A stretch of 64,000 nt of DNA from Candidatus Latescibacterota bacterium (GCA_965207885.1 OZ242311.1:5888001-5952000); one strand, 5' to 3'. Positions 7,008 through 27,936 are shown, numbered from the stretch's first letter. Notes: generated from the sequence alone by a model not told the origin. A program made the numbers and translations.

Positions 7008-7055
7008 TAAATGAGAGACCGTGTTTGGGGTTCTGTGTGTTGGTTCACCTTTCAA

Positions 7056-7082
7056 GACGTTTGGTTGGGGCGAAAAGTTTTA
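7056..7082 (-). promoter_or_regulatory. Probable autoregulatory ECF promoter (TAAAAC-N17-CGTC)
   Basis: AAC/CGTC bipartite motif ~50 nt upstream of the sigma gene start. Confidence 0.6.
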
Positions 7083-7167
7083 ATGATGGTTGAATTTTTT
7101 CATATTTTGAAGAAAAGTGGCTTCATGGTTAAATTTTTTACTTTAACTCACTCCTGACAACAGAGCC

Positions 7168-7200
7168 GTCATCGCGGCAATGTTTAAGCCGCGATCCAGA
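7168..7200 (+). repeat. REP-like palindrome A, copy 2
   Basis: GTCATCGCGGCAATGTTTAAGCCGCGATCCAGA. Confidence 0.85.
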
Positions 7201-7220
7201 AGGTTTCACAGAGGTATTAT

Positions 7221-10193: not shown

Positions 10194-10201
10194 GTGGAGA
10201 A

Positions 10202-10915
10202 ATGATGTCTTTAAGCCAGTTTGAGTTTTTCGGTTTTGCTCACATCGCTGCGATGGGCGTGATTCTCGCTGTGCCGATTGTTTTGACGCTTGTTGTCAGG
10301 CGGCTGGATTCGGAGAGGACGACTCAGGCAATTTGCTACGCGTTTGCGGGGGTGATTGCGCTCAACGAGGTGCTGAACTGGAGCTATCGATTGGCGACGG
10401 TTGGAGTGCATGAGTTTGTGCGGGAGTATATGCCGTTGCATGTTTGTGGGATTGCTGTTTTTGCGGCTGTGATTACACTCGTTTTCCGGCGGCAGACGGC
10501 TTACGAGATCGTTTATTTCTGGGGGCTTGTCGGCGCGACGAATGCGGTTGTGACGCCTCAGCTTGAGTTCGGCTATCCGCAGTATCGCTTTTTTCAATAT
10601 TTTATCGCGCATGGCGGTATTGTGGCTGCTGCGCTGTTCGCCACATGGGGCCTGGGTATGCGGCCGACAGCGAGATCGGTGTTGCGCGTTTTTGTTTTGC
10701 TGAATGTTCTGGCGATTGTTTTGATTGGGGTCAATCTGATGCTGGGGAGCAATTATATGTTTCTTTGCCAACCGCCTGATACAAAATCGCCTTTTTTCTT
10801 TTTGCCGTGGCCGTGGTATCTCTTATTCCTCGATGGGGTGGCATTGGTGTTATTTTATGTGCTTTTTATTCCGTTCGCGAAGAGAAAGTTATACGCTTCA
10901 AATTCGTTGAGATGA
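10202..10915 (+). CDS. YwaF/TIGR02206-family integral membrane protein
   Basis: PLHVC, YFIAHG, NYMFL and PWPWY motifs. Confidence 0.85.
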   Translation: MMSLSQFEFFGFAHIAAMGVILAVPIVLTLVVRRLDSERTTQAICYAFAGVIALNEVLNWSYRLATVGVHEFVREYMPLHVCGIAVFAAVITLVFRRQTAYEIVYFWGLVGATNAVVTPQLEFGYPQYRFFQYFIAHGGIVAAALFATWGLGMRPTARSVLRVFVLLNVLAIVLIGVNLMLGSNYMFLCQPPDTKSPFFFLPWPWYLLFLDGVALVLFYVLFIPFAKRKLYASNSLR

Positions 10916-13900: not shown

Positions 13901-14028
13901 GGGGCACGGGTTTGGGTTTGTCGATTATTTATGCTATTGTTCGCAAGCACAATGGGGAGATTACTGTGGAGAGCGAGCAGGGCGTGGGGACGACGTTTAA
14001 GGTGATGTTGCCGGTGGAGGAGTGGTAG
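10912..14028 (+). CDS. Sensor histidine kinase with periplasmic beta-propeller repeats and Y_Y_Y domain (NtrB-like kinase core)
   Basis: Repeated DG.LW.GT blades; FAYRLDGGEWS; TM helix; AHELNQP H-box; NLLSNARDA, DNGVG, FEPFFTTK and GTGLGL boxes. Confidence 0.92.
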   Translation: MIDQYAKCLILLILVGASACFAATPFTPRHPDPVHESWRWRFFPELKGQGASCLVEDGDGNFLFGTDDGIYRYDGMNWRVFPFDEGMVGAQINALYVARDGGVYVGSDRGVSRFENGTWEQVFPLQGDKWNTYDLMEAQDGSLWAGTEWGALRLTPEGARLFVAAEDTTGIREMVSDAVTFVVVPLDNRRLMVYDVCEGSDGAIWFGTYDGDLIRFDFASGYRRFSGEDGIDQGTYPRICVTEDGVVWVVYGDNSKRVNRFDGEKWEALEVGDLGRDHYYTSILESGDGTLWIGGSRLITHRDSVWRVYDSSVSLHRMELHEATDGALWIVGRGEEAVRLDLSENQTQTYEGLIFQCDTPDGAQWFISQDNGVVRYDGQGWTRFGVEDGLMDTPSKLIATRDGALWAAGSHEHVAATARLDGSVWVLKRHPQLSWSVDPRSVYEAFDGSLWFAAAEDWWLYDFLGGVAVFDGTSWIHHTAPGMTHYVYGIGQSSDGVLWFGGRLFGFDGVRSVPFTGPGVLVEDFIDAVYTTLQGDLWLGSRTYGVFRYDGTEWLRFDYGDGLADNRVRSIFQDRDGAIWVGTAEGVSRFDGRTWLTQALPPDFPRTEFYDPVLQSRDGTLWLNSVSDLDAWYRRSESRGIAAPCTLRTIRYVPETDPPETLMSLSPDEVSEDGEITFAWTGTDLWRSTLREDLQFAYRLDGGEWSPYSGHSVRSFENLDVGAHTLEVKARDLAFNEDPVPSLVQFNVVPLVWRRPWFIGLIAGFVILTGYLISRIIVRDRRLRQANEDLASANETQLLQSARLVSLGQMVAGVAHELNQPLTVVETTAGDISLRLMEGIPLETDELREMMADVRGVVNRMAGTVDHLRVFSRDASEEPRQAMDVNTVIASSLKLMGSQLENRGIDLVQDLSDALPEVWGHPHPLEQVVLNLLSNARDAVDERAEMEGMGYDKWIWIRARAEDDAVVIEVEDNGVGMDEATRQRLFEPFFTTKDADRGTGLGLSIIYAIVRKHNGEITVESEQGVGTTFKVMLPVEEW

Positions 14029-15544
14029 GGGTTTCTATATAGGATGCATACGCCGATCGCACGATTTCTTCGGACGGTTTGTCGCGAATAGAATACGTGC
14101 GGCGACGTGCCCAGTATCTCGCCCACCGTTCGTCGCTGGCTATCCAATTATCCCAATAGAAGACACCATTTACTATCCCAGGGTACTGAGTCAGGGTGTT
14201 GATTAATGCCTTGTAGATGTTGGCCTGAGTTTCTCGCCCGTCATCCAGTCCATTGCGGTTCGAGTCGGTAAATACGAATCGTCGGTTTTGCGCTGATGTA
14301 TCACCTGGTCGTTCGGATGTTTCAATCACGTCCATAGCACCGTATTCGGTAAATACAATTGGTCGGTCGGGATTTGTGTTTGCAAGCGGAATAAGCTGGT
14401 TTTGGAATATCTGCCTGTAACGCGTCTGGAAACTTTCGACGCTCAGTACGGTTGACGGACGGGAGTCCGTCAGTGGAAACCACGCACTGATGCCAATGAT
14501 GTCGAGGTCCAGATCTGCCCATAGATGACCTGCGCCCGATCCCGATCCGTAAAAGTGGGATGCTGTGAGTACGTCGTAGTGCATGTCATAGGTTAGCAGG
14601 CCGCTGTACACGGCACGCACACTTTGTACCATTGATCTGAGTTCTCGACCAAAATCATTTGTCATATAACTTCCTGAACGCGTGCGAAAGAGCCGGTCGG
14701 TTTCCGTGCCCAACGAGTATAAGCGCACGCCCTCGTCCTCTGCTATTCTGGCGAAGTGTACCGCCTGTTGCGTGTAGGTTGCCCAGAATTCGGCGACAAA
14801 ACGCCGATGATGTGGATGATCTGGACGCCAGGGCCAGTATTGGGGCAATATCAACCCATAGATATTCGGATTATCAGGCGGAACGCCGCCAGGTGCCGAG
14901 TCTCCGAGTTGCCACCTGCGTACCGGGTGTGCGGCGGTTTCAGCCTCATAGGCTTCGAATGCCAGGGTCAGATAGACGTCAATCCCGTGATTTCTGAATT
15001 CTCGGATCAATTGTCTGAGTGCTTCATCTGAAAAAGTGGGAATATCGACATTTGATGAGTACACGCGCTCGACCGTGCTGTCCATGCTGTCGTCGTAATG
15101 CAGCGCGACGGATAGGCCGATCCAGTTTACATGCAGGCTCTTTAGCCATTGGATATAGTCCATAGGTATGAGCGTTCCGATCCTTCCAGCGGCTTCCCAT
15201 TGATCTACGACATAGCCAGTATCTCCCCAATTACCCGCAGCATGAATGGCGCGTAGTGGAAAATTTATTTTCGTGTCTATCGCCTGGGGCACTGTTTTGC
15301 CAAAGTCGCTGGCAAAGATCAGAAAGTCTGAAAATGCAATCGCGCCATCGCCATTCAGGTCGAATCGGTCTTCATATTTCTCATCACCACGACTCGTCCC
15401 GAAGTGTTCGACAAATAGCAAAAAGTCTGGAAGATCCACGACGCCGTTTTCGTCAAAGTCGGGGAGAGGGCTGGATTGTGATGCATGCGCGAGAGATAGA
15501 CTGATCCATAGACAGACCACAAGCGGGATACACAAACGCTTCAT
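13997..15544 (-). CDS. Secreted protein: EF-hand/dockerin-like module plus GH113-like TIM-barrel glycoside hydrolase
   Basis: DFDENGVVDLPDF and DLNGDGAIAFSDF; LGTE and FTEYG catalytic Glu motifs; LDIIGISAWFPL. Confidence 0.7.
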   Translation of the reverse strand: MKRLCIPLVVCLWISLSLAHASQSSPLPDFDENGVVDLPDFLLFVEHFGTSRGDEKYEDRFDLNGDGAIAFSDFLIFASDFGKTVPQAIDTKINFPLRAIHAAGNWGDTGYVVDQWEAAGRIGTLIPMDYIQWLKSLHVNWIGLSVALHYDDSMDSTVERVYSSNVDIPTFSDEALRQLIREFRNHGIDVYLTLAFEAYEAETAAHPVRRWQLGDSAPGGVPPDNPNIYGLILPQYWPWRPDHPHHRRFVAEFWATYTQQAVHFARIAEDEGVRLYSLGTETDRLFRTRSGSYMTNDFGRELRSMVQSVRAVYSGLLTYDMHYDVLTASHFYGSGSGAGHLWADLDLDIIGISAWFPLTDSRPSTVLSVESFQTRYRQIFQNQLIPLANTNPDRPIVFTEYGAMDVIETSERPGDTSAQNRRFVFTDSNRNGLDDGRETQANIYKALINTLTQYPGIVNGVFYWDNWIASDERWARYWARRRTYSIRDKPSEEIVRSAYASYIETPTTPPPATSP

Positions 15545-15641
15545 GCTGCACCTTTCTGTGCGTTGTTGAAAAGAACACGCGCCCAAAATATATTTTCAAG
15601 GGCGATAGGGAAAGCGTGTTCCATTGAAGCCCTGATAACAA

Positions 15642-15690
15642 AAGCCCAACGGTCTATAGGAGGCCGTTGGGCTTTTGTTTGGTTTTCTAT
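15642..15690. repeat. 49-bp direct repeat copy 1 (hairpin, terminator-like)
   Basis: AAGCCCAACGGTCTATAGGAGGCCGTTGGGCTTTTGTTTGGTTTTCTAT; 48/49 identical to 20661-20709. Confidence 0.9.
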
Positions 15691-15720
15691 TTTGTTTGGC
15701 GAGAATGCGATACAAGTCCT

Positions 15721-16011
15721 TCAAAACGGGTCAAGTTCAAGTTTTGGAATCTTTTTTGGCAGTCGGGTCTTAGCCAGATCGTAATTGCGTTGAAGATTCA
15801 TCCATAACTCAGGTGTTGTCCCCAGTGCTTGAGAAAATAACCAGGCTGTCTCAGGCGTTACCCCCCGCTTGCCACGGATGATCTCATTAACTCTTTGAAG
15901 TGGCACTTCAATGTGTTTGGCAAACGCTACCTGAGTTATTCCCAAGGGCTTCAGAAACTCTTCCAAAAGGATTTCACCTGGATGCGTCGGAATACGATTT
16001 TCGGGCAGCAT
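15721..16011 (-). CDS. higA: HigA-family antitoxin
   Basis: PTHPGEILLEEFL, RVNEIIRGKRGVTPETA, WMNLQ. Confidence 0.92.
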   Translation of the reverse strand: MLPENRIPTHPGEILLEEFLKPLGITQVAFAKHIEVPLQRVNEIIRGKRGVTPETAWLFSQALGTTPELWMNLQRNYDLAKTRLPKKIPKLELDPF

Positions 16012-16028
16012 GATTGTCTCCAAATGGT

Positions 16029-16319
16029 CTAATGATAGTCCGTCAGCGATACCTGATGTGCAGAATTTTCGGACCATCGAAAAATGATCCGCCATTGCTC
16101 GTTGACACGGATGCTGTAAAATCCCTGAAGATTGCCTTTCAGGGCTTCCAGGCGATTGCCCGGAGGTGTCCGAAAGTCTTGCAGGCGATGTGCAGTCTCA
16201 ATGACATCCAATTTTCTTAAAGCGGCACGTATAATATCTGGCGGAAAGCTGCGGGCGCGTCGCGTTTGTCTGTTGTGAAATAAATCTTCTGTTGCAGGAT
16301 CTCCAAATGACTCAATCAT
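16029..16319 (-). CDS. higB: HigB-family (RelE fold) toxin
   Basis: PPGNRLEALKG, YSIRVNEQWRIIFRW, terminal DYH; lies upstream of higA. Confidence 0.92.
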   Translation of the reverse strand: MIESFGDPATEDLFHNRQTRRARSFPPDIIRAALRKLDVIETAHRLQDFRTPPGNRLEALKGNLQGFYSIRVNEQWRIIFRWSENSAHQVSLTDYH

Positions 16320-16561
16320 GAAGTGTTCTTTTTTGAATTTTATCGATTTCACGGTAATCGTGTAAAATATAGTCAATCCTAACTCTATTATCAATAAAAA
16401 TTTATAGGCATCTGGTAATTTGAGAGTCGATATTTTAAGTGAGAGGTAAGGTCTGAAAGGCGTGATCAGTGAGAGAATTTTTGATCTTTTTTTGATTTAT
16501 TACCTTATTTGTAAATTTCATATCTCAATTATATATAATAATTTACGTCGATTTTTTATTT

Positions 16562-16638
16562 TTCGACAAATTTGTTGACAACAGTTTTGTTGTCTATTAT
16601 ATTTATACGACAAATTTGTTGACAACAATTCTGTCGAA
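16562..16638 (+). promoter_or_regulatory. Sigma-70 promoter (TTGACA-17-TATATT, 16575-16603) overlapped by four 18-bp imperfect palindromic boxes
   Basis: CGACAAATTTGTTGACAACA repeated exactly at 16564 and 16608; GACAACA-GTTT-TGTTGTC perfect inverted repeat. Confidence 0.7.
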
Positions 16639-16661
16639 TCTCAAAAAGGAAAAAAGAAGCC

Positions 16662-17894
16662 ATGAAATCATCAATTGGTCCTTGGGTAAGCAGAGACAAC
16701 TTTTTCGCTCGCGAACGCGATTTGCAGATATTGAAGACGCGGGTCCGTGACGGCAACCACGTATTGTTGACCGGACAGCGGCGTATGGGAAAGACCAGTA
16801 TTGCCCGGGAACTCGGGCGATGGCTTGAAGCTGAGGGTTGGGTCTTTCTCTTCGCTGATGTCGAGGGAGCGACCTGTGCAGAGGACGTAATCGCAGACAT
16901 CGCACAGGCGACCCACTCGGTTCGCCCGATCATGTCGCGTATTGGTACCACGATGAAACGCTTGGTCGGCCGTGTCGAGGAGATCAGCGCACACGACTTT
17001 CGCGTGAAATTCCGGGATGGGCTGAATGCCGGGAACTGGCGGCGCCACGGGGAAGAGTTGCTTCGTCATTGTGCCGCGCATGAACAGCCGGTTCTTCTCG
17101 TCATTGACGAATTGCCGATATACCTCAAGCGTGTACTTCCCAGAAAAGATGGCGTCCAACAGGTCGATGAGTTCCTGAGTTGGCTGCGCGGCGTGCTTCA
17201 AGGCATCGGATATGGCTCCCTTGTCCTAATCGTATCTGGCAGCATTGGGCTTACACCTATCGTAAACCGGCTCGGCATACCTGATCGCATTAATCATCTC
17301 TATCCTTTTCGCCTGGGACCTTGGGACCGCGATACCAGTGTTGCGTGTTTTCAACGTCTCGCGGAGAGTTACAAATTACAAGTTGAGGATGGGGTGGCAA
17401 ACGCGGTATATGACGCGCTCGGTGTTGGCATACCTTACCATGTGCAGTCCTTTTTTGCTCGTTTGCGGGACCATGCCACTAAGCTAGAGCGAGGGGTGAA
17501 GTTGGAAGATGTCCAGAAGGTCCGCAAGGAGCTTCTCGGTCCTTCCGGGCAGAACGACCTTGCACACTACAAGACGCGCCTCAACGAGGCATTGGAAGAT
17601 GAGAACCATACCATCGCCATGGAGATTCTCGCCGAGGCTGCCACCCAGGAGGTGTTCACGCCAGGAGCGCGGCGTTGCCTCGAAGGACTGTACGCAGGGG
17701 AGGGTAACGATGCCCGGAGGCGCATCGAGGATACACTGGAAATTTTGATGCACGACGGCTATCTCGAAGCCTGCGATGATGGCCATCGCTTCTCGTCGCA
17801 CCTGCTAAAGGACTGGTGGTCGTGGAAACACGCCTACCACATCCCCCTCGAAAACCGACGCTCTGACGACAAATCACTGGGAGACGCGCAATGA
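16662..17894 (+). CDS. P-loop ATPase (archaeal/STAND-like) with C-terminal winged helix
   Basis: FFARERD; Walker A GQRRMGKT; Walker B LLVIDE; VSGS sensor; overlaps the next gene (ATGA). Confidence 0.85.
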   Translation: MKSSIGPWVSRDNFFARERDLQILKTRVRDGNHVLLTGQRRMGKTSIARELGRWLEAEGWVFLFADVEGATCAEDVIADIAQATHSVRPIMSRIGTTMKRLVGRVEEISAHDFRVKFRDGLNAGNWRRHGEELLRHCAAHEQPVLLVIDELPIYLKRVLPRKDGVQQVDEFLSWLRGVLQGIGYGSLVLIVSGSIGLTPIVNRLGIPDRINHLYPFRLGPWDRDTSVACFQRLAESYKLQVEDGVANAVYDALGVGIPYHVQSFFARLRDHATKLERGVKLEDVQKVRKELLGPSGQNDLAHYKTRLNEALEDENHTIAMEILAEAATQEVFTPGARRCLEGLYAGEGNDARRRIEDTLEILMHDGYLEACDDGHRFSSHLLKDWWSWKHAYHIPLENRRSDDKSLGDAQ

Positions 17895-20620
17895 ACAAGT
17901 CCGATCAACGAATTCGCAAGTTCAATCCGGGGACGTTTCAAACCGACGAGGAAGTGATTGAGCAGTTCGTAGTCAGGAAACGCGAACTCAGTATCGTGCT
18001 TGAGGTGCTACGCGGAAATATCGATTCACCATCGTGCCAGCACGTTTTGGTGGTTGCACCTCGTGGTCGGGGAAAGACCATGCTGCTCGCGCGGATCGCG
18101 GCGGAGTTGAATACTGATGACGGACTCTCCGAATGTCTTCTACCAGTTCGGTTCATGGAAGAGAGTCACGAGGTACTCAATATTGCCGATTTTTGGCTCG
18201 AAACCCTGTTCCACCTTGCGCGGGAGAGCGCCAGGCACGATTCCGATCTCGCACGGGAACTGCGAGAGACACACGCCGATCTGATTGATCGCTGGCGCGA
18301 AAAGGAACTCGCAGATCGCGTCCTTGCTGCTGTCCTGGACGCATCGGACCGGCTGGGCAAAAAACTCGTTCTCATGGTCGAAAATCTACAGACACTCTGT
18401 GAAAACGTGGACGCCGATTTCGGCTGGCAGCTACGTGGCGCATTGCAATCGGAACCACAGATCATGCTGCTCGCCACCGCTACGAGTCGCTTCAAGGGTC
18501 TGGAAGATGCCAAGGAGCCGTTCTTCGAGCAGTTCCGAATACTGGATCTGGAACCATTAAACACAAAAGAATGTCGTCGTTTGTGGCAGGTCGTCAGCGA
18601 CGACCAGGTGAGCAATCGCGATATCAGGCCGCTCGAGATTCTGACCGGTGGCAATCCCCGCCTCCTGGTCATCGTCGCCGAATTCGCGCAGCACCGGTCA
18701 TTGCGCCAGTTGATAGAAGAACTGGTGACATTGATTGATGACCATACCGAGTATTTCCGCAGTCATCTGGAGGTCCTGGCCAGCGTCGAACGCCGTGTGT
18801 ATCTCGCGTTGCTTGACCTTTGGGATCCCTCTAAGGAACCGTCAAGTGCGGGTGAGATCGCGGCGCGCGCGCGCATGGATGTTCGAATCGCATCGACTAT
18901 GCTCAGACGACTCGTCGATCGGGAGATGGTCATCTTTAAGGGTACTGGTAGAAAGAGATGGTACGAAGCTGCAGAAATTCTCTACAAATACTACTACAAA
19001 CTGCGACGCGAACGCGATGAGACAGCGGTTGTAGCAAATCTAATCCACTTTATGGCGGTGTTTTATAGCAAAGCGGAACTGGCTGAGATGTCCGATAAGC
19101 TGATTGCGGAGGCGGCGCAATTGCCGGTGATTCGCAAGGGTGTTGAACGGGTAATCGCCGAACAGCCTCAAGTCGGCAGTGTGTTCTCTAACATAGTGCG
19201 GCCAAGCATTGATCAGACATCTGAACTCGCTACATTAATTGACAAAGAGAGCGTCGAACGATTGTTCGAAGATATTACTACAGCTTTAACAGAAGAGGCA
19301 TTCGAGAAGGTTATCGAGACTGTGGACCGAGCTTTTGCTGCTTGGAGCGCAAATGGGTATCAAGTGCCAGAGCCATTGATCGCTGTGGGATTTTTTTGCA
19401 AGGCGTTTGTACACGAGCAATTCGACGATTACGCAGTGGCGTTAGCGTCTTATGGTGAAGTGATCGCGCGTTTAAGTAGCAGCGGTGCACCCGCTTTCCA
19501 GACTTTGGTCGCTTGGGCATTGTTCAGCAAGGGAAATGTGCAAGTAAAACTTGAGGAATTTGCATCGGCGATAGCGACTTATGATGAAGTGATCGCCCGC
19601 TTTGGCTCCAGCGATGCACCGGATCTCCAGGCTCCGGTCGCATGGGCATTTTCCAAAAAGGGAGATATGCAAGTAAAACTCGATGAGTTTGCGTTGGCGT
19701 TAGCATCTTATGACGAAGTGATCGCCCGCTTTGGCTCCGGCGATGAGCCGGATCTCCAGGCTCCGGTCGCTTGGGCATTGTTCAGCAAGGGAGATGTGCA
19801 AGTAAAACTCGACGAGTTTGCGTTGGCGATAGCATCTTATGACGAAGTGATCGCCCACTTTGGCTCCAGCGATGCGCCGGATCTCCAGGCTCCGGTCGCT
19901 TGGGCATTTTCCAAAAAGGGAGATGTGCAAGTAAAACTCGATGAGTTTGCGTCAGCGATAACGTCTTATGATGAAGTGATCACACGTTTTGGAGACAGCG
20001 ATACACCCGATCTCCAAGTGGTAGTAGCTTTGTCATTGTCTGACAAGGGAGATGTGCAAGTAAAACTCGGCGATTGCGTAGCGGCGGTAGCGTTTTATGA
20101 TGAAGTGATCGCGCGCTTTGGAGACAGTGATGCACCCGGTCTCCAGGTTCCAGTCGCTTTGACATTGTTCAAAAAGGGTTTGACACAAATTAAGATGGGC
20201 AGTGCGGAAGAAGTTCTACACACCTGTGAAGAGCTTGAAAGAAGACTCGATGCCTTAACTGGCAATGAGAAGGTCGAGTTTACATGGCGCGCAAGGTGTG
20301 TGCGGGCTTTGGCACTACTGGTCCAGAAAAAACGTCAAGCCGCCGTGAACGCGTTCCGGTCTGCGTATGCTGTGTTCGAATCTGACAACGAAATGGTGAT
20401 AAATGAGATGCTATATTTTGTGACCGAATTGATCGCAAAAGGTGCCTCGGAGCGTGACCTTATCGAGATCCTGTCCAGCGACAAAGAGAAATCTGATACT
20501 TTAGTACCCCTCATCGTTGCTCTGCGACAGCGTACCGGCGAGGGGGTTCGCGCGCCTGTAGAAGTCCTTGAGGTCGCGAAGGATATCAACAAGCGCATTG
20601 AAAAAAGAATGGCGAATTGA
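17891..20620 (+). CDS. STAND/NLR-like ATPase-wHTH-TPR protein, paralog 1 (seven 43-aa repeats)
   Basis: Walker A APRGRGKT; LMVEN Walker B variant; LTGGNPR (GxP) motif; SAGEIAARAR...LRRL HTH; 43-aa repeats. Confidence 0.85.
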   Translation: MNKSDQRIRKFNPGTFQTDEEVIEQFVVRKRELSIVLEVLRGNIDSPSCQHVLVVAPRGRGKTMLLARIAAELNTDDGLSECLLPVRFMEESHEVLNIADFWLETLFHLARESARHDSDLARELRETHADLIDRWREKELADRVLAAVLDASDRLGKKLVLMVENLQTLCENVDADFGWQLRGALQSEPQIMLLATATSRFKGLEDAKEPFFEQFRILDLEPLNTKECRRLWQVVSDDQVSNRDIRPLEILTGGNPRLLVIVAEFAQHRSLRQLIEELVTLIDDHTEYFRSHLEVLASVERRVYLALLDLWDPSKEPSSAGEIAARARMDVRIASTMLRRLVDREMVIFKGTGRKRWYEAAEILYKYYYKLRRERDETAVVANLIHFMAVFYSKAELAEMSDKLIAEAAQLPVIRKGVERVIAEQPQVGSVFSNIVRPSIDQTSELATLIDKESVERLFEDITTALTEEAFEKVIETVDRAFAAWSANGYQVPEPLIAVGFFCKAFVHEQFDDYAVALASYGEVIARLSSSGAPAFQTLVAWALFSKGNVQVKLEEFASAIATYDEVIARFGSSDAPDLQAPVAWAFSKKGDMQVKLDEFALALASYDEVIARFGSGDEPDLQAPVAWALFSKGDVQVKLDEFALAIASYDEVIAHFGSSDAPDLQAPVAWAFSKKGDVQVKLDEFASAITSYDEVITRFGDSDTPDLQVVVALSLSDKGDVQVKLGDCVAAVAFYDEVIARFGDSDAPGLQVPVALTLFKKGLTQIKMGSAEEVLHTCEELERRLDALTGNEKVEFTWRARCVRALALLVQKKRQAAVNAFRSAYAVFESDNEMVINEMLYFVTELIAKGASERDLIEILSSDKEKSDTLVPLIVALRQRTGEGVRAPVEVLEVAKDINKRIEKRMAN
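19379..20281 (+). repeat. Intragenic 129-bp tandem repeats (TPR-like units)
   Basis: Unit starts at 19379, 19508, 19637, 19766, 19895, 20024 and 20153; central units are highly similar at DNA level. Confidence 0.9.
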
Positions 20621-20660
20621 GATGGGTGGTTGGCAGGTTTTACATATCAGAAGCTCTCAT

Positions 20661-20709
20661 AAGCCCAACGGTCTATAGGAGGCCGTTGGGCTTTTGTGTG
20701 GTTTTCTAT
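20661..20709. repeat. 49-bp direct repeat copy 2 (bidirectional terminator-like hairpin)
   Basis: Lies between convergent genes; matches 15642-15690. Confidence 0.9.
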
Positions 20710-20773
20710 GCTCATTACATTGTCAAGTCTGACGTTCTGAAATTCGCACTGGCTTCCGCCAGGGCCAAGGTCG

Positions 20774-20851
20774 AAAGATTTTTAGATTGAGTTCGTTGAT
20801 TTGGCGGTAGTGTTTTCTATTGGCTGTGCAAAGTGTTACATGATTTTCAAT
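20774..20851 (-). pseudogene. C-terminal remnant of a VapC/PIN toxin
   Basis: Manual translation IENHVTLCTANRKHYRQINELNLKSF matches the PIN C-terminal L.T.N.KH(F/Y) motif; no N-terminal part. Confidence 0.7.
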
Positions 20852-20990
20852 TTCTCAAATTGCGGACGTAAGCATCGACATCTGCCATATCTTTTCTGTC
20901 TCGCCACATCCCAAAAGCTGCGTGGTCTTTTACAGATTCGTCTGTTCGCTGTCGGGTGGGAGAAAGGATGGCTTTTTCCTTACGTTCCAT
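20847..20990 (-). CDS. Small VapB-like antitoxin (possibly a remnant)
   Basis: AFGMWRDRKDMADVDAYVRNLR resembles C-termini of antitoxins that precede PIN toxins. Confidence 0.6.
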   Translation of the reverse strand: MERKEKAILSPTRQRTDESVKDHAAFGMWRDRKDMADVDAYVRNLRN

Positions 20991-21339
20991 GTTCCATTGA
21001 TAGGAGCGTTCCGACTCTTTGTAAAACCGCATCCACTATCTCCGTGGGCAAAGGACATATCAACGTTGCATTTCTCGCCCGCCAATCCATATTCTTGACC
21101 TGGTCTGAAAGAATAATACCCGTCACATCCAATCCCGCAGGAATGGCGACCTCAAAGGGATACCCCTTCACTTGATTGGTAATTGGACAGAGTATTGCCA
21201 AATGGGTCTTGCCATTATAAGCACCCGGTGAGAGCACAGCGGCGGGGCGACGACCGGCTTGCTCATGTCCTGCTTGTGGATTGAAGTTAATCCAGACCGC
21301 ATCGCCGCGCTGTGGAACGTACTCGTCTGGCTTCACCAT
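20980..21339 (-). CDS. mazF: MazF/PemK endoribonuclease toxin
   Basis: YVPQRGD, FNPQAGHEQAGRRPA, CPITNQVKGYPFEV, DQVKNMDWRAR. Confidence 0.95.
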   Translation of the reverse strand: MVKPDEYVPQRGDAVWINFNPQAGHEQAGRRPAAVLSPGAYNGKTHLAILCPITNQVKGYPFEVAIPAGLDVTGIILSDQVKNMDWRARNATLICPLPTEIVDAVLQRVGTLLSMEHGT

Positions 21340-21575
21340 ATTTCACCGCCTACAGCAGGTCCAGTATCTATTTCACCGTGTAAGTTGTGTTCGGTCACCT
21401 TGGATAGAAGATCGTCCAATTTCAAGCCAGATGGCTTTACAGGTTCAATGACCAATTCCTTACCACGCAGCGATAATTCGACCCGCGAATTGGGTTCAAG
21501 CCCGATCTGGACAGCGAGTGGTTTGGGAATACGCAGGGCTAAACTATTGCCCCATTTCTGCACACGGGTTTCCAT
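21333..21575 (-). CDS. mazE: MazE/AbrB antitoxin
   Basis: VQKWGNSLALRIP; terminal EIDTGPAVGGEIW; GAGGAGG RBS. Confidence 0.93.
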   Translation of the reverse strand: METRVQKWGNSLALRIPKPLAVQIGLEPNSRVELSLRGKELVIEPVKPSGLKLDDLLSKVTEHNLHGEIDTGPAVGGEIW

Positions 21576-21593
21576 ATCTTCCTCCTCTAAATA

Positions 21594-21620
21594 GTAGATA
21601 CAATGAAGATACATTGAGAC
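21594..21620 (-). promoter_or_regulatory. Probable MazEF operator (overlapping GTATCT.CA(A/T)TG repeats)
   Basis: GTAGATACAATGAAGATACATTGAGAC directly upstream of mazE; resembles the alternating-palindrome mazEF operator. Confidence 0.55.
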
Positions 21621-21732
21621 TTAGAACTTATCAAGGCCAATTTTGTATCCCTCACGCAGTGGCAATACAATACGCGATATTGCATGTCATATCATACTGG
21701 TAGAGAATGACTTATATCAGCCTCTCAGTTTT

Positions 21733-21793
21733 GTCCACAATTTTGTTGACTTTTTTGTATAAGATATTATTTTGTCAACAGTTTCGTTGACAA
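21733..21793 (+). promoter_or_regulatory. Promoter (TTGACT-16-TATTTT) bracketed by two 18-bp palindromic boxes
   Basis: GTCCACAATTTTGTTGAC (21733) and TTGTCAAC-AGTTTC-GTTGACAA (21772-21793). Confidence 0.65.
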
Positions 21794-21822
21794 TGGTTTA
21801 ATGAATTACTGGGAGATGCGCA

Positions 21823-24282
21823 ATGAACAATTCCGATCGCCCGATCCGCAAGTTCAATCCGGGGACGTTTCAGTCCGACGAGGAGGTGATTGAGCAGTTC
21901 GCGGTGAGGAAACACGAACTCGATACGGTGCTTGGGGTCTTGCGCAGGAATATCGGTTCACCATCGTGCCAGCACGTTCTGATGGTCGCGCCTCGGGGTC
22001 GGGGAAAGACGATGTTGCTCGCGCGCGTCTCGGCGGAGTTGAATGCTGATGGCGAGCTTTCCAGATGTTTTTTACCGGTTCGGTTTATGGAGGAGAGTCA
22101 CGAGATATTCGATCTCGCGGATTTTTGGCTCGAGACGCTGTTTTATCTTGTGCAGGAGAGCGTCAGGCACGATTCCGCGCTCGCACAGGAGTTGCGAGAG
22201 GCGCACGCCGATCTGGCCGATCACTGGGACGAGGCGTCGCTCGCGGATCGCGTCCGTGACACTGTTCTGGACGCGGCGGACCGGTTGGGCAAAAAACTCG
22301 TTCTTATGGTGGAAAATCTGCAGGCGCTCTGCGAAGATATAGATGACGATTTTGGCTGGCAGTTGCGCGGCGTGTTGGAGTCCGAGCCTCGGATCGTGTT
22401 GCTTGCCACTGCGACGAGTCGCTTTGAGGGTCTGGAAAATGCGGCGGAGCCGTTTTTTGAGTTGTTCCGAATTGTCGATCTGGAACCGCTGAGTACCGAG
22501 GACTGCTGCCGTCTGTGGGAGGTGGTCGGTGGAGACGCGGTGACTGAGCACGAGATCAGGCCGCTCGAGATCCTGACCGGTGGCAATCCCCGTCTTCTAA
22601 TTATGGTCGCTGAGTTCGCGCAGCACAGGTCGTTGCGCCAGTTGATGGAGGAACTGGTGACGCTGATTGACGAGCATACCGAGTATTTCCGCGGTTATCT
22701 GGAGGCTTTGCCCAGGAGCGAGCGCCGCGTGTATCTCGCGTTGATTGATTTTTGGCGACCGTCGAGTACGAGCGAGATCGCGGCGCGGGCGCGTATGGGG
22801 GTTCGGCCCGTATCGACTATGCTCGGCCGACTTGTGAACAGGGGTGCGGTCGTCGTGGAGGGGGCTGGCAGGAAGCGATTGTACGCCGCAGGGGAACCTC
22901 TCTATAGCATCTATTACAAGTTGCGGCGCGAGCGCGACGAGGCGACAAGTATGAGGCGTCTGATCCATTTCATGATGGCGTTCTACGGGATAGGCGAGTT
23001 GTACCAGATGTCTGGTCGGCTGAGTTTGGAGGCGGCAGAGTCAAAGGTTATTCGCGAAGGTATTGAGCGTGCGCTCGTCGAACCACCGGACGTTGAGGAC
23101 AGTTTTTTACGCGTGGCAGGGTCGGCTGTCGAATATATATCGGACAGGGCGACGGCAAATGCGCCATTCACAGCGGAACTGCGTTTAAAAGAGGAGATCC
23201 AAACGGCGCTCGATGAGAAAGAATTTGAAAGGATTATCGAGATTGGTGACCATTTTATCGCTTCAGGAAGCGTGGATGCATCTCTGATGCCAGAGTCTCT
23301 GCTTGCCTACATATTGCATATGAGGGCTATTGCTTATGAAAAATTGGAGGATTTCCAGGGGGTGGTCGCGGTTTGCGATGAGATGGTTGAGCGTTTCGAC
23401 GACGCGAGCGACCATACACTCCTGGCGCGGATGGCCCGCGTATTGATCCACGGGGCAAGAGCGCGATATGAACTCGGAGAGTTGGGGTTGGTGATGTCGG
23501 CATATGAGGCGGTGATTGAGCGTTTTGGTTCCAGCGACGCGCCCGATTTCCAGTTTCCGGTCGCTCTGGCGCTGTTAAAAAAGGGAGATTTGCAAGTTCA
23601 ACAGAGAGAGTTGGGGCTGGCGGTGTCTGTATATGAAGAGGTGATTGCCCGTTTTGGCTCCAGCGATGCATCGGGGATTCAGCTTATGGTCGCCTGGGCG
23701 TTGTCCCAAAAGGGAGATTTGCAAGCCCAACTGGGAGAGTTGACGCTGGCAGTATCTGCGTATGAGGAAGTGATCGAGCGTTTTGGTACCAGCGATGTGC
23801 CAGCGATCCGGGTTCTGATCGCCTGGGCATTGTCCCAAAAAGGTATGATACAAATTAAGGTGGGGCGTATGAAAGAAGCTATGCTCATAAGTGAAGAGCT
23901 TGAGGGAAGACTCGGTGCGTTGGCTGACGATGAGAAGGTGGTGTTTGTATGGCGAGCAAGGTATGTCCATGCTTTGGCACTGCTGCTAAGGAACAGACTA
24001 CGGATGGCTATGGATGTGTTTCAGTCGGCGTATGCGGTGTTCCTACCTGACAATGAGACGATGATGTACGAGATACTACAACTCGTGCCCGATTTGATCG
24101 CAAACGGTGCCTCGGAGCCTGATCTTGTCGATATTCTCCTGTCCAGGGGGAAATCCGATGCGTTGGAACCTCTTATTGTTGCCCTACGACAGCGTTCCGG
24201 CGAGGTGGTTCGTGCGCCTGTGGAGGTTCTTGAGGTGGCGAGGGATATTAACAGGCGTATTGAGTTTTTCCGAAATGAATGA
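21823..24282 (+). CDS. STAND/NLR-like ATPase-wHTH-TPR protein, paralog 2 (five 43-aa repeats)
   Basis: Same motifs as 17891-20620; N-terminal ~370 aa and C-terminal cap closely similar, middle diverged. Confidence 0.85.
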   Translation: MNNSDRPIRKFNPGTFQSDEEVIEQFAVRKHELDTVLGVLRRNIGSPSCQHVLMVAPRGRGKTMLLARVSAELNADGELSRCFLPVRFMEESHEIFDLADFWLETLFYLVQESVRHDSALAQELREAHADLADHWDEASLADRVRDTVLDAADRLGKKLVLMVENLQALCEDIDDDFGWQLRGVLESEPRIVLLATATSRFEGLENAAEPFFELFRIVDLEPLSTEDCCRLWEVVGGDAVTEHEIRPLEILTGGNPRLLIMVAEFAQHRSLRQLMEELVTLIDEHTEYFRGYLEALPRSERRVYLALIDFWRPSSTSEIAARARMGVRPVSTMLGRLVNRGAVVVEGAGRKRLYAAGEPLYSIYYKLRRERDEATSMRRLIHFMMAFYGIGELYQMSGRLSLEAAESKVIREGIERALVEPPDVEDSFLRVAGSAVEYISDRATANAPFTAELRLKEEIQTALDEKEFERIIEIGDHFIASGSVDASLMPESLLAYILHMRAIAYEKLEDFQGVVAVCDEMVERFDDASDHTLLARMARVLIHGARARYELGELGLVMSAYEAVIERFGSSDAPDFQFPVALALLKKGDLQVQQRELGLAVSVYEEVIARFGSSDASGIQLMVAWALSQKGDLQAQLGELTLAVSAYEEVIERFGTSDVPAIRVLIAWALSQKGMIQIKVGRMKEAMLISEELEGRLGALADDEKVVFVWRARYVHALALLLRNRLRMAMDVFQSAYAVFLPDNETMMYEILQLVPDLIANGASEPDLVDILLSRGKSDALEPLIVALRQRSGEVVRAPVEVLEVARDINRRIEFFRNE

Positions 24283-24394
24283 AGACATTAAAATGCATTA
24301 AGACATAATCTGAATGCGTGATCTTGCTTTTTGCCATTTCCGTCTTATTTTCCCAAAAACAAACGATTGTAAATGTGGGAAGAAGGGAATAAGA

Positions 24395-25795
24395 ATGGCT
24401 GAGCAGGTCAGCATGACGGTTCTGGTGATCGATGATGATGCACATATTCGGTCTTCGATAGGGAAGTTTCTCATCGCCAGGGGGCATACGGTTATCGAAG
24501 CGGCAGATGGCGAGAAGGGTGTGGAGGTGGTGGAGAGCCAGGCTGTGGATATTGTGATTACGGATGTGAAGATGCCTAAGATGGATGGATTTGAGGTGCT
24601 TCGGCGGGTGCGGTCTGTCTCTCCTGAGACCGAGGTGATTGTGATTACGGGTGTGAAAGAGGCGGAGAATGCGTTTCGCGCGTTGCGAGAAGGGGCGTTT
24701 GATTTTTTCAACAAGCCTTTTCAGGTGGAGGAGTTGAATGCGGCTATCCAGCGCACTGTGCGCTACCAGGCGCTTCGAAAAGAGAAGGATAGGGTTCAGG
24801 CGAGGCTGGATAGGATGGAGGCAAAGGAGCGAGAGAAGAGCGGTTTGAATGCGGTTATAGGGGAGAGTGAGGCGGTTGTGAAGATGAAGGCGCAGATTCA
24901 GCAGGTGGCTGCGACTGATTATACGACGGTGCTGATTGTTGGGGAGACGGGTACGGGGAAGGAACTGGTTGCGCGAGCGGTGCATAGCGAGAGCGACCGC
25001 GCTGGCGGTCCGTTTGTTGCCGTGAATTGTTCTGCTATTCCGGGCAATTTGTTTGAGAGCGCGTTTTTTGGGCATAAGAAGGGCGCGTTTACAGATGCGA
25101 AGGCAGATCAGAAGGGCCATTTTGAGCTGGCAGATGGGGGTACGCTGTTTCTGGATGAGATCGGAGATATGCCACTCGAGATGCAGGTGCGTTTGTTGCG
25201 TACGCTGGAAGAGCGATGCATTCGACCCGTGGGGAGTAGTGATGAGATCGCTGTGGATGTGCGCGTGGTTGCTGCTACTAATAGGGTGCTTAGTGTAGCG
25301 GTGCAGGAGGGGAATTTCAGAGAGGATCTGTATTACAGGTTGAATGTGTTCGCGATTCAGGTGCCGCCGTTGCGCGAGCGAGCAGGGGATGTTCTGTTCC
25401 TGGCGCAGCACTTTTTGGCTGGTTATGCCCGCGATTTGCGGAAGCCGCTGATGGGATTTTCGAGGGAGGCAGAGGATTTGCTTCAGAAACAGGTGTTTCC
25501 AGGCAATGTTCGCATGCTGAAGAATGCGGTTGAACGGGCTGCTATTTTGTGCGGGGGTAGGGAGATTGATGCGGATGATCTGAGTTTTGAGCTATTTGAG
25601 ATTGGTCCGGCCAGTAGCGTTGATCGCGTGGTGCAGTCCTTCCCCGAGGATCAGATGAGTCTGCCCGCATTTGAGAAGGCACTGCTTTGTGAGGCTTTGC
25701 GACGAACAGAGGGGAACCAGGTTCAGGCAGCCGCGCTTCTGGGGATTTCGAGGATGGTTTTGAGGAATAGGATGAAGCGGTATGGGTTGTTTTGA
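24395..25795 (+). CDS. NtrC-family sigma-54-dependent response regulator
   Basis: Receiver VLVIDDD...TDVKMP; GETGTGKE; GAFTDA; TLFLDEIG; Fis-type HTH. Confidence 0.95.
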   Translation: MAEQVSMTVLVIDDDAHIRSSIGKFLIARGHTVIEAADGEKGVEVVESQAVDIVITDVKMPKMDGFEVLRRVRSVSPETEVIVITGVKEAENAFRALREGAFDFFNKPFQVEELNAAIQRTVRYQALRKEKDRVQARLDRMEAKEREKSGLNAVIGESEAVVKMKAQIQQVAATDYTTVLIVGETGTGKELVARAVHSESDRAGGPFVAVNCSAIPGNLFESAFFGHKKGAFTDAKADQKGHFELADGGTLFLDEIGDMPLEMQVRLLRTLEERCIRPVGSSDEIAVDVRVVAATNRVLSVAVQEGNFREDLYYRLNVFAIQVPPLRERAGDVLFLAQHFLAGYARDLRKPLMGFSREAEDLLQKQVFPGNVRMLKNAVERAAILCGGREIDADDLSFELFEIGPASSVDRVVQSFPEDQMSLPAFEKALLCEALRRTEGNQVQAAALLGISRMVLRNRMKRYGLF

Positions 25796-25878: not shown

Positions 25879-27936
25879 TTATGACGTTTTTTTGCCGAAG
25901 GCACTGGCAAAGATCAGAAAATCGCTAAACCCAATCATGCCATCCCCATCCAGATCGAATCGCGCTTCATATCCTTCGTCGTCCTGACTTAACCCGAATA
26001 GTGCTACAAATTGCAAAAAGTCGGCAAAATCAACAGTGCCATCGCCATCAAAATCGGGTATAGGAGATTGAGGTATTATATATGGCGACATATCCCACAG
26101 CAGAATGATGCCATATAATGATCCGGAAGCGAGTATTTTTCCATCTGGCGAAAACGACAGGGAATGGCTATCGAGCAAGTGTCCTTCAAGAGTAGCGATA
26201 TTTTCTTTCGTTGCAACATCCCATAGCCTGACCGTGCCACCACTTGGTCCGGAAGCGAGTATTTTTCCATCTGGCGAAAACGACAGGGAACGGACTGAGA
26301 ACACATGTTTCAGAGTAGCGATATTTGTGTGTGTCTCAACATCCCACAGTTTGACCGTGCGATCATTTGCTCCGGAAGCGAGTATTTTTCCATCGGGTGA
26401 AAACGATACTGAATAGACCAAAGACTTGTGTTCAAGAGTAGCGATATTTGTGTGTGTCGCAACATCCCACAACTTGACCATGTTGTCACTTGCCCCGGAA
26501 GCGAGTATTTTTCCATCGGGTGAAAACGATAGCGAATTGATATAAGACGTATGTCCTTCAAGAGTAGCGATATTTGTGTGTGTCGCAATATCCCACAGCT
26601 TGACCGTATTATCGGCTGCCCCGGAAACGAGTGTTTTACCATCTGGCGAAAACGATACAGAACGGACCAAAGACGTATGTCCTTCAAGAGTAGCGATATT
26701 TGTGTGTGTCGCAACATCCCACAGCTTGACCGTATTATCGGCTGCCCCGGAAACGAGTGTTTTACCATCTGGCGAAAACGATACAGAACGGACCAAAGAC
26801 GTATGTCCTTCCATGGTAGCGATATTCGTGCGTGTCTCAACATCCCACAACCTGACAGTGCGATCCCCGAATCCAGAAGCGAGTATTTTGCTATCGGGTG
26901 AAAACGACACAGAATAGACCCGAGGCGTATGTTCCATGGTAGCGATATTTGTGCGTGTCGCAACATCCCACAGCTTGACTTTATCGTTACTTGCCCCAGA
27001 AGCGAGTGTTTTGCCATCTGGCGAAAACGATATGGAATTGATATAAGACATATGTTCCATGGTAGCGATATTTGTGCGTGTTGCAATATCCCACAGCTTG
27101 ACCGTATTATCGGCTGATCCAGAAGCGAGTATTTTGCCATCTGGTGCAAACGATAGAGAATTGATAAAAGACGTATGTCCTTCCAGAGTAATGATATTTG
27201 TGTGTGTCGCAACATCCCACAGCTTGACCGTGTCATCATTTGATCCAGAAGCGAGTATTTTGCTATCGGGTGAAAACGACACGGAATAGACCGTAGAAGT
27301 ATGTTCCAGAGTAGTGATATTTGTGCCTGTTGCAACATCCCATAGCTTGACTGTATCATCATTTGACCCGGAAGCGAGTATTTTGCCATCTGGCGAAAAT
27401 GATACAGAACGGACCAGACCTGTATGTTCTTTAAAGGTAGCGATATTTGCGCCTGTTGCAACATCCCACAGTTTGACCGTTTTATCCCATGACCCGGAAG
27501 CGAGTATTTTGCCATCTGGTGCAAACGATACGGACGTGATAAAAGATGTATGTCCTTTAAAAGTAGCGATATTTGTGCCTGTTGCAACGTTCCACAGCTT
27601 GATATTGCCATCGTTAGCTCCGGAAACGAGAGTCGTCCCATCTGGTGCAAACGATACGGATTCGACATGTGTCATGTGTCCAGCCAGTAGCGCGAGTTCA
27701 CGAGAGGTTGTCACATCGTAAATCCACACACCAACGGTACTTGCCACTGCGAGGCGTTGACCATTCGGAGAAAATACAATAGCCTTATCACTGCCGCGAC
27801 CGAGGCGTCCTTTGCCCAGACGGGCGATTGCCCCATTGGGTAAATGCCACTGCGGAGACGCATAGCTGACAGACAAGAGGCTGAGCAATGCAAAAAGGCA
27901 GATGCACAATCGGATTGGAAAGACGAAGGCTTTCAT
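25879..27936 (-). CDS. Secreted WD40-repeat protein (14 blades) with C-terminal EF-hand/dockerin-like module
   Basis: Signal peptide; LPNGAIARLGKG cap; 14 GH...SFSPDG...LWD repeats; DFDGDGTVDFADF and DLDGDGMIGFSDF. Confidence 0.93.
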   Translation of the reverse strand: MKAFVFPIRLCICLFALLSLLSVSYASPQWHLPNGAIARLGKGRLGRGSDKAIVFSPNGQRLAVASTVGVWIYDVTTSRELALLAGHMTHVESVSFAPDGTTLVSGANDGNIKLWNVATGTNIATFKGHTSFITSVSFAPDGKILASGSWDKTVKLWDVATGANIATFKEHTGLVRSVSFSPDGKILASGSNDDTVKLWDVATGTNITTLEHTSTVYSVSFSPDSKILASGSNDDTVKLWDVATHTNIITLEGHTSFINSLSFAPDGKILASGSADNTVKLWDIATRTNIATMEHMSYINSISFSPDGKTLASGASNDKVKLWDVATRTNIATMEHTPRVYSVSFSPDSKILASGFGDRTVRLWDVETRTNIATMEGHTSLVRSVSFSPDGKTLVSGAADNTVKLWDVATHTNIATLEGHTSLVRSVSFSPDGKTLVSGAADNTVKLWDIATHTNIATLEGHTSYINSLSFSPDGKILASGASDNMVKLWDVATHTNIATLEHKSLVYSVSFSPDGKILASGANDRTVKLWDVETHTNIATLKHVFSVRSLSFSPDGKILASGPSGGTVRLWDVATKENIATLEGHLLDSHSLSFSPDGKILASGSLYGIILLWDMSPYIIPQSPIPDFDGDGTVDFADFLQFVALFGLSQDDEGYEARFDLDGDGMIGFSDFLIFASAFGKKTS

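Follow-up and report, generated by a model that had tools for sequence, protein, structure and literature searches.

STAND ATPases that carry tetratricopeptide repeats (TPR) are now regarded as the main pattern-recognition receptors of bacteria, and to our knowledge the known STAND-TPR receptors carry their own effector. In Avs/AVAST proteins (e.g. Avs3, PDB 8dgc), a STAND module, a winged helix and a long TPR-like helical sensor of varying repeat number are fused to a nuclease, SIR2, TIR or protease effector. The PH0952-type archaeal STAND proteins (6mfv) are composed of an ATPase, a winged helix and TPR with no enzyme domain, and regulators of the MalT/LAL type (MNS clade) link the STAND-TPR architecture to repeated DNA boxes, the MalT boxes in the case of MalT itself. 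The archaeal ATPase_2 proteins PABY2304 (2qen) and SSO1545 (2fna), for which we know of no assigned function, share with Orc1/Cdc6 an AAA+ core and a C-terminal winged helix. The island described here occupies positions 15,642-24,282 of a 64,000-nucleotide stretch, hereafter the window, of Candidatus Latescibacterota bacterium (GCA_965207885.1 OZ242311.1:5888001-5952000). It consists of two copies of a mobile module, the core of which is an AAA+ ATPase of 410 residues (p410) translationally coupled to a STAND ATPase-winged-helix-TPR protein.

The two units lie in tandem, as the initial annotation had claimed. Unit 1 encodes p410 (16662-17894, plus strand) and NLR1, a STAND protein of 909 residues (17891-20620, plus strand) named for its likeness to the NOD-like receptors (NLRs), with an ATGA overlap joining the end of p410 to the start of NLR1; this ATGA junction is also typical across other loci of the family. 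Unit 2 encodes the paralogous STAND-TPR ATPase NLR2 (819 residues; 21823-24282, plus strand), which is 54% identical to NLR1 in an end-to-end alignment interrupted only by whole 43-residue repeats. NLR1 and NLR2 are the only copies of the family in the window's genome. Homology between the units begins 19 nt ahead of both start codons, and these 19 nt of unit 2 (21804-21822, plus strand) are the 3'-end stub of a lost p410 gene. The 410-residue gene had been annotated as an addition to unit 1, whereas the stub indicates that it was lost from unit 2. The closest counterparts differ from this operon in several respects. Unlike the Avs/AVAST proteins, those of the window have no fused effector and match no PADLOC Avs model, and their operon includes a second AAA+ winged-helix ATPase and a conserved palindromic operator.

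The first 470 residues of the 909-residue protein, used as a query, matched 2967 of 8000 scored candidates at E ≤ 1e-3; the top 120 are 70-88% identical over the query part and 500-1257 residues long. Relatives are encoded in 200 stretches of contigs from one genome per species, and 79 loci were retained. Of these, 55 have a p410 homologue immediately ahead of the STAND gene, 13 have a partial relic, and the remaining 11 have nothing of p410. Several of the p410-less loci keep the first ∼25 and last ∼20 codons of the gene fused to each other, and others, unit 2 included, retain the last few codons. With p410 upstream in most loci and relics or stubs elsewhere, the ancestral unit is evidently promoter - p410 - STAND-TPR, and unit 2 a derived, reduced form that has lost p410. 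The conserved core is thus p410 with the STAND-TPR gene, in place of the hairpin, toxin-antitoxin (TA) operon and ATPase initially proposed as the unit. At locus L006 (5781-8001), a DDE transposase (6595-7653, minus strand) splits p410 into an N-terminal AAA_16 fragment (5781-6527) and a C-terminal relic just ahead of the STAND gene.

p410 carries a Walker A motif (GKTS) and a Walker B motif (DE), in which K44, T45, D149 and E150 are invariant in 49 p410 sequences. Pfam AAA_16 matched p410 at 37.3 bits, with no match reported for Pfam ATPase_2 itself; NCBIfam returned no family for p410 or the STAND ATPases, and the ESM Atlas placed p410 only in generic 'ATP-binding protein' clusters. The AlphaFold model (predicted local confidence, pLDDT, 85; predicted template modelling score, pTM, 0.83) shows an AAA+ core followed by a predicted winged helix at residues 334-377, and the top Foldseek hits of this model were 2qen (E 3.5e-11) and 2fna (1.3e-10), followed by ORC/Cdc6 structures (ORC2) and RuvB. 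Judged by its model, p410 belongs with the ATPase_2 / Orc1-Cdc6-like proteins, having the AAA+ core, both Walker motifs and the C-terminal winged helix. It differs from the archaeal ATPase_2 proteins in being only 17-18% identical to them, in being bacterial and in its coupling to a STAND-TPR gene. A complex prediction for p410 and the nucleotide-binding oligomerization domain (NOD, residues 1-440) gave a score of 0.01, which says nothing for or against contact.

The larger proteins contain a P-loop NTPase with Walker A and B motifs, a helical domain, a winged helix and a C-terminal repeat sensor, and the annotation as effector-less STAND (NLR-like) ATPases with TPR-like repeats agrees with Pfam, the structural model and Foldseek. 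In NLR1 the STAND NOD spans residues 1-∼430 and is followed by a linker, six to seven 43-residue TPR-like repeats (129-nt period, 19380-20195) and a conserved helical C terminus; NLR2 has four such repeats. Walker A (GRGKT) is invariant; in Walker B (LVLMVEN), where Glu replaces the usual Asp, E164 and N165 do not vary among 62 sequences. Pfam AAA_16 matched the STAND protein at 37.6 bits, against a cut-off of 32.6. The model of the 909-residue protein (pLDDT 84, pTM 0.53) predicts an NTPase, helical domain and winged helix up to ∼430, then a linker that is modelled poorly, two-helix repeats of 43 residues in a regular solenoid, and a conserved helical cap. Its winged helix, modelled as helices with a two-strand wing at residues 320-360, suggests that the 'wHTH' of the initial annotation is the ordinary winged helix of the STAND module, with DNA binding still possible. 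Foldseek ranked the STAND-TPR structure 6mfv, which likewise lacks an enzyme domain, as the best match to the model (E 4.5e-10), with Avs3, ORC1, CED-4 and Apaf-1 also listed. A repeat-array sensor encoded beside a sensor-less NOD-type ATPase would, by analogy, recall the paired sensor/helper NLRs of plants, and fungi reportedly possess NLRs with repeats of high internal conservation. The comparison with plant and fungal NLRs is an analogy only. p410 is nearer to ORC/ATPase_2 than to NB-ARC, and NLR2 shows no diversifying selection.

Between one and 13 of the 43-residue repeats were found in 60 of the 62 full-length homologues, with 236 spacings of exactly 43 residues. Their scaffold is 83-89% conserved (A3, R13, F14, G15, A27, A29, L30, K33 and G34), and positions 24, 25, 28, 31, 32, 35 and 38 are repeat-specific, varying among repeats. 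Neighbouring repeats are 75-82% identical in DNA, permitting gain and loss of units; NLR1 ranges from 599 to 1065 residues within the genus with its repeat number variable among close relatives, and contigs from three runs carry an NLR1 variant that skips 19429-19866. Two further conserved segments lie outside this array. Residues 1-23 of both STAND proteins (window 17891-17960) form a disordered, highly conserved peptide ahead of the ATPase, in which R9, F11, N12, P13, G14, Q17, D19 and E21 reach 90% conservation or more across 62 sequences and which could be a short docking motif. The last ∼40 residues (window 20480-20620, and likewise in NLR2) are the most conserved stretch outside the NOD, with G883, A896 and D898 invariant and V886, R887, A888, P889, E891 and V892 at least 90% conserved.

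This architecture is compatible with more than one role. Defence is the most likely, and a serious rival is that the two ATPases are a signal-sensing transcription factor pair of the MalT/LAL kind, with the TPR sensing a metabolite or a host or community protein and the winged helices regulating genes for adaptation to the sponge niche; we rate this as possible, well short of probable. The STAND-TPR fold resembles that of the MNS-clade regulators, and NLR2 has a weak TPR_MalT match (24 bits, below the cut-off of 45). The window proteins nevertheless depart from MalT/LAL in their regular 43-residue repeats and their pairing with p410, and Pfam returned no GerE/LuxR match; the C terminus is modelled as a helical cap with no LuxR-type helix-turn-helix (HTH), nor was any other C-terminal DNA-binding domain found. 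The variable repeat number of NLR1 among close relatives also argues against such a regulator.

The palindromic boxes that the initial annotation had recognised as related prove to be a real shared cis element of the two units. Promoter/operator 1 (16559-16636, plus strand) contains, within 16559-16634, two composite sites of the form CAAC-N6-GTTG-A-CAAC-N6-GTTG, the first overlapping TTGACA-17-TATATT, an 11/12 promoter match; promoter/operator 2 (21730-21802, plus strand) contains two degenerate GTC(C/A)AC-N6-GTTGAC boxes. The composite element is found ahead of p410 in nearly every phylum, usually in two copies, where the first copy holds TTGACA, with a TATAAT-like hexamer 17 nt further on. 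Across 78 loci, the 160 nt upstream contain 134 CAAC-N6-GTTG sites (at least one in 61 loci, at least two in 49), compared with a background of 0.0065 per 160 nt in the same loci, an enrichment of ∼265-fold. The operon is evidently driven by a predicted sigma-70-type promoter that lies among two to four CAAC-N6-GTTG palindromes, and in at least 8 named phyla these boxes accompany the operon. As the cis element stays constant while the host phylum changes, the boxes are best explained as being bound by an operon-encoded protein, for which p410 and the STAND protein, each with a predicted winged helix, are the candidates.

Repeated boxes at its own promoter would also suit a MalT-like regulator. 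Against this, the composite box has no second target in the window's genome, where, leaving aside two matches with two mismatches each that were taken as chance, it is confined to the unit 1 promoter, so that no regulon is visible; a genome-wide search with the composite box found no wider regulon, the unit 2 boxes being too degenerate for the pattern. The boxes, together with the ORC/Cdc6-like fold of p410, raise the further alternative of a maintenance or replication module of an integrated element, in which p410 would act as initiator on iteron-like repeats and the TA operons as addiction modules. An AT-rich stretch (16400-16560) lies next to the boxes, TA cassettes adjoin the operon, and the operon moves across phyla, all as expected of such a module. 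However, the AT-rich stretch is not preserved outside this phylum, the boxes coincide in part with a good -35/-10 promoter, the island occupies a fixed chromosomal site in the genus, and p410 is often deleted while the STAND gene is retained. Moreover, no integrase, relaxase or replicase travels with the module among the scanned neighbours. A replication role is regarded as improbable.

The loci come from metagenome-assembled genomes (MAGs) labelled Latescibacterota, Nitrospirales, Rhodothermales, Alpha- and Gammaproteobacteria, Spirochaetia, Bryobacterales and other Acidobacteriota, Binatia, and Chloroflexota (Caldilineaceae, Anaerolineales), with NOD identities across these MAGs of 60-85%. 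The NOD tree, whose internal branches are short, requires 17 changes of phylum label as compared with a minimum of 7, which supports repeated lateral transfer; the operon and its palindromes appear clearly to have moved together between many phyla. The family is present in 48 of 168 genomes of the phylum, in 18 of 20 of the genus and in none of 10 from the other genera of the taxonomic family, with patches elsewhere. In the same tree, the NLR1 copies (10 rows, including the 909-residue protein) and the NLR2 copies (14 rows, including the 819-residue protein) form sister groups inside Latescibacterota, so that the tandem pair is evidently old and not a recent duplication. In 10 loci the island is flanked by the same two genes, one for GH113 and one for a sigma-54 response regulator. 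Roughly half of the genomes in the genus encode only one copy, whose open frame of ∼820 residues matches NLR2 in length; NLR2 therefore seems to be stably resident in the genus, with p410 and NLR1 as the accessory part.

Sequencing runs labelled sponge metagenome, from several studies, contain parts of the stretch. In the accessible passages of Robbins et al. 2021, sponge-enriched TPR genes are reported as laterally transferred and TA systems as enriched in sponge MAGs; these passages are silent on a p410 + STAND-TPR operon, and literature searches turned up no paper describing one. Lateral transfer of sponge-enriched TPR genes is in keeping with a MalT-like niche regulator. Like the enrichment of such genes, it also fits the usual reading of TPR enrichment in sponge symbionts, namely that a eukaryote-like TPR protein manipulates the sponge host, and the sponge-labelled runs fit that reading. 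The protein is nonetheless a NOD-bearing ATPase whose gene is accompanied by an operator and a gene for a second ATPase of cytoplasmic type, and Pfam shows no secretion-related domain, no dedicated signal-peptide predictor having been run. Of the explanations considered, host manipulation is held to be the least probable.

Upstream of each operator, on the minus strand, lie the TA genes, and their assignment to higBA and mazEF passes curated Pfam and NCBIfam cut-offs. In unit 1, higA (15721-16095; HTH_3; TIGR02607, 3e-29, 101 bits; probable start near 16011) encodes the antitoxin and higB (16029-16394; PF05015, 1.3e-21, 77 bits; probable start near 16319) a RelE-like toxin; in unit 2 the toxin gene mazF (20980-21339; PF02452, 3.4e-23, 82 bits; NF007386, 1.2e-36, 125 bits) is paired with the antitoxin gene mazE (21333-21614; PF04014, 6.4e-12, 46 bits; probable start near 21575). 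The genes of each pair are adjacent or overlapping. Next to mazF are two minus-strand relic frames, the C-terminal pieces of a VapC (PIN) toxin (20726-20854) and of its antitoxin (20850-21035). Pfam returned no match for either fragment, and the vapBC relic was instead confirmed by identities of 94 and 95%, respectively, to the C-terminal parts of an intact pair at locus L005 (3753-4365, minus strand), which comprises a PIN toxin of 125 residues (PIN E 1.3e-14) and an 81-residue antitoxin. The L005 pair, the source type of the relic, sits beyond the GH113 gene, and a further antitoxin-like copy is found elsewhere in the window's genome (C1:5711009-5711119, 84% over 37 residues). Some metagenome contigs carry a variant that lacks 20775-20972, within the relic/mazF stretch. 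The eight short RNA-library contigs listed lie on higA, mazEF and parts of NLR2, except for one that lies beyond NLR2; such contigs prove no transcription, and parts they leave uncovered carry no meaning.

Comparison of 19 gaps between hairpin and operon in relatives revealed TA genes or relics in 11 and an empty gap of 150-310 nt in the other eight. The filled gaps hold HigBA, HigA alone, MazEF, MazE alone, or a PIN-pair antitoxin with a toxin stub, and in 11 of 11 the inserts face the hairpin and point away from the operon. Contigs of another population join 15678 to 16551 and 20704 to 21764, running from hairpin straight to operator and skipping each TA block. Type II TA cassettes (HigBA, MazEF, VapBC-like), polymorphic in presence, use the stretch between hairpin and operator as a landing pad, and the view that TA modules are exchangeable at this fixed site is upheld. 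The genome contains 27 such toxin genes (2 MazF, 8 HigB and 17 PIN); against this number, two toxins and one relic within 9 kb make the island a real TA hot spot. As type II TA systems the window genes are ordinary; what is unusual is their repeated insertion in the same orientation between one terminator and one operator.

The initial annotation had further suggested that the TA operons act as effectors of the STAND sensors, for example with the activated ATPase shutting the divergent TA promoter and so freeing the toxin. In accord with this, all TA genes or relics in the 11 filled gaps diverge from the operon, the island has two of the 27 toxin genes of a 6.2-Mb genome, and promoter-like sites of mazEF lie within ∼100 nt of the unit 2 boxes. 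Several findings argue to the contrary. Eight of the 19 gaps are empty, some TA partners are reduced to antitoxin genes or relics (L005, L011, L024 and window 20726-21035), each cassette is absent from contigs of other populations, and the TA families differ, so that no common interface is expected. Outside Latescibacterota, a TA-type Pfam domain was found within 1.5 kb in two of 55 loci (L070 and L034), where operon and operator are intact; these counts, from Pfam scans of 112 upstream and 92 downstream small open reading frames (ORFs) at 78 loci, are lower bounds, as greedy longest-frame ORF picking may hide small TA genes at GC-rich loci. The rarity of TA matches outside the phylum and the empty gaps show that the cassettes are lineage-specific, exchangeable and dispensable, and cannot be the general effectors of the system. 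As an explanation of the island, TA effectors are accordingly unlikely, if marginally less so than a replication module. The cassettes may stabilise the accessory island, or may merely exploit a safe gap between terminator and promoter.

The hairpins that bound this landing pad are nearly identical, as originally noted, with 48 of 49 nt shared over the span first described and 50 of 52 between 15639-15690 and 20658-20709. Hairpin 1 (15637-15690), the upstream boundary of unit 1, has a 19-bp stem with an A-tract before it and a T-tract after it and resembles a bidirectional terminator; it is the strongest terminator-like site between 15.5 and 24.5 kb. Hairpin 2 (20656-20709), followed by a T-tract, would be the terminator of NLR1 and marks the boundary of unit 2. 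The predicted folding energies are -31.8 kcal/mol (z -6.4) and -30.2 kcal/mol (z -5.7), respectively, and the GC-rich stem-loop with T-tract has the features of an intrinsic (Rho-independent) terminator. A 33-nt core, searched with up to three mismatches, occurs twice in the 6,228,721-base genome, both times in the window, which rules out a genome-wide repeat. By BLAST the hairpin is confined to Latescibacterota loci of the window's group, usually with one copy ahead of each unit; 19 copies were collected in relatives, 18 by pattern and one (L024:9508-9547) by BLAST. TA cassettes and hairpins beside the ATPase genes are almost wholly restricted to this lineage. Among 18 aligned copies the stem is kept with one-sided changes (G-U) and no compensatory pairs, so that the hairpin structure rests on energy and conservation. 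Rfam at E ≤ 0.1 gave only three sub-threshold matches of miRNA models to the palindromes and hairpin, which were taken as chance.

Links to known defence genes were sought among the neighbours of the family. Neighbours with roles in genetic conflict comprise type I restriction-modification (RM) subunits (L027, L046 and L083), DUF499, Uma2 (several loci), Fic-like and NYN/HIRAN proteins and the DDE transposase at L006; housekeeping neighbours outside the genus include PolA, UmuDC-like proteins and dehydrogenases. Distant homologues, 39-40% identical over the NOD and annotated without p410, are found on two conjugative plasmids, beside Pycsar and AbiE genes in Sphingobium (L085) and beside cyclase and ThiF genes and a Tn3 transposase in Agrobacterium (L084). 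The plasmid neighbours, in two cases, hint at a role in conflict, and homologues among plasmid defence genes speak against a MalT-like regulator. The two distant homologues are single genes of ∼1030-1080 residues in cultured, tractable bacteria. According to the accessible part of Lee et al. 2026, 198 of 589 prokaryotic STAND clades are defence-associated and 391 are not, a proportion that favours MalT-like regulation, and this catalogue may already place the p410/STAND-TPR family.

Collectively, these data are consistent with a self-regulated, horizontally mobile paired-STAND sensor that carries TA cassettes as facultative hitch-hikers or stabilisers, a reading in which we have moderate confidence. 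A winged helix encoded in the operon would bind the palindromes and so autoregulate the operon. The TPR array would bind a specific protein ligand, upon which the NOD would exchange nucleotide and oligomerise, with p410 as the sensor-less partner, or helper. As no enzyme effector is present, the output would probably be exerted on DNA or through an ATP-driven assembly, and the TA cassettes would be independent selfish or stabilising passengers. In its more specific form, the module would be an effector-less, self-regulated immune device in which the TPR sensor recruits the ORC/Cdc6-like helper to act on DNA, circulating as a cassette among at least 8 phyla of the sponge microbiome and having given rise, in one lineage, to a dedicated landing pad for the exchange of TA cassettes; this version is put forward only tentatively.

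A number of observations weigh against the paired immune sensor. p410 is dispensable for retention of the STAND gene and was not found (E ≤ 1e-10) in three of the five genomes with a p410-less STAND gene. The boxes partly coincide with the -35 element and persist upstream in L020 and L022, genomes with no p410 at the same threshold; this persistence leaves the STAND protein, as well as p410, as a candidate binder. The STAND Walker B reads hhhhE-N as opposed to hhhhD-D/E, and an effector domain is absent both from the two ATPases, where Pfam found AAA, winged-helix and TPR domains only, and from the 120 near-length and three longer homologues listed. PADLOC-DB 2.0.0 gave no model match, Avs included (best mad8, E 2e-4 and 5e-3), and so did not recognise the island as a defence system. 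None of the seven pattern matches in viral contigs was a relative, and neighbours outside the genus are mixed with no clear defence island. Furthermore, six NLR2 orthologues are all 818-819 residues long, with dN/dS of 0.11-0.21 in the NOD and 0.21-0.45 in the TPR region, and their repeat-specific positions evolve no faster than others (0.112 versus 0.166, one-sided p 0.85). Ongoing diversification of the repeat surface was thus not found among these orthologues by either measure. Under this purifying selection, NLR2 looks like a receptor of fixed specificity and not an arms-race gene, and its stability and fixed length also favour MalT-like regulation.

Adjoining the island is a 685-residue protein with ∼13 WD40 repeats (25879-27936, minus strand), whose sole PADLOC match was to the HEAT-ARM_XIII model and which may be a further sensor of the repeat type or else a repeat protein of eukaryote-like character. 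A direct repeat of 109 nt, 75% identical between 15295-15403 and 25890-25998, is shared by the GH113 gene, in its dockerin-bearing N-terminal part, and the WD40 gene, at its C-terminal end. The plus-strand GC skew is very strong (0.2-0.39) over plus-strand genes at 8000-14000 and 22000-25500, and GC falls to 0.43-0.48 in the TA and intergenic parts of the island.

An effector-less family with an AAA+ winged-helix partner and a co-moving cis element offers a tractable case for how bacterial NLR-like proteins signal without an effector. It also indicates that part of the 'eukaryote-like TPR' and lateral-transfer signal in sponge symbionts represents NLR-like ATPases and not host-manipulation factors. 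In addition, the gap between hairpin and operator, which occurs in filled, decayed and empty states, is a clear natural case of a TA landing pad at a fixed chromosomal site.

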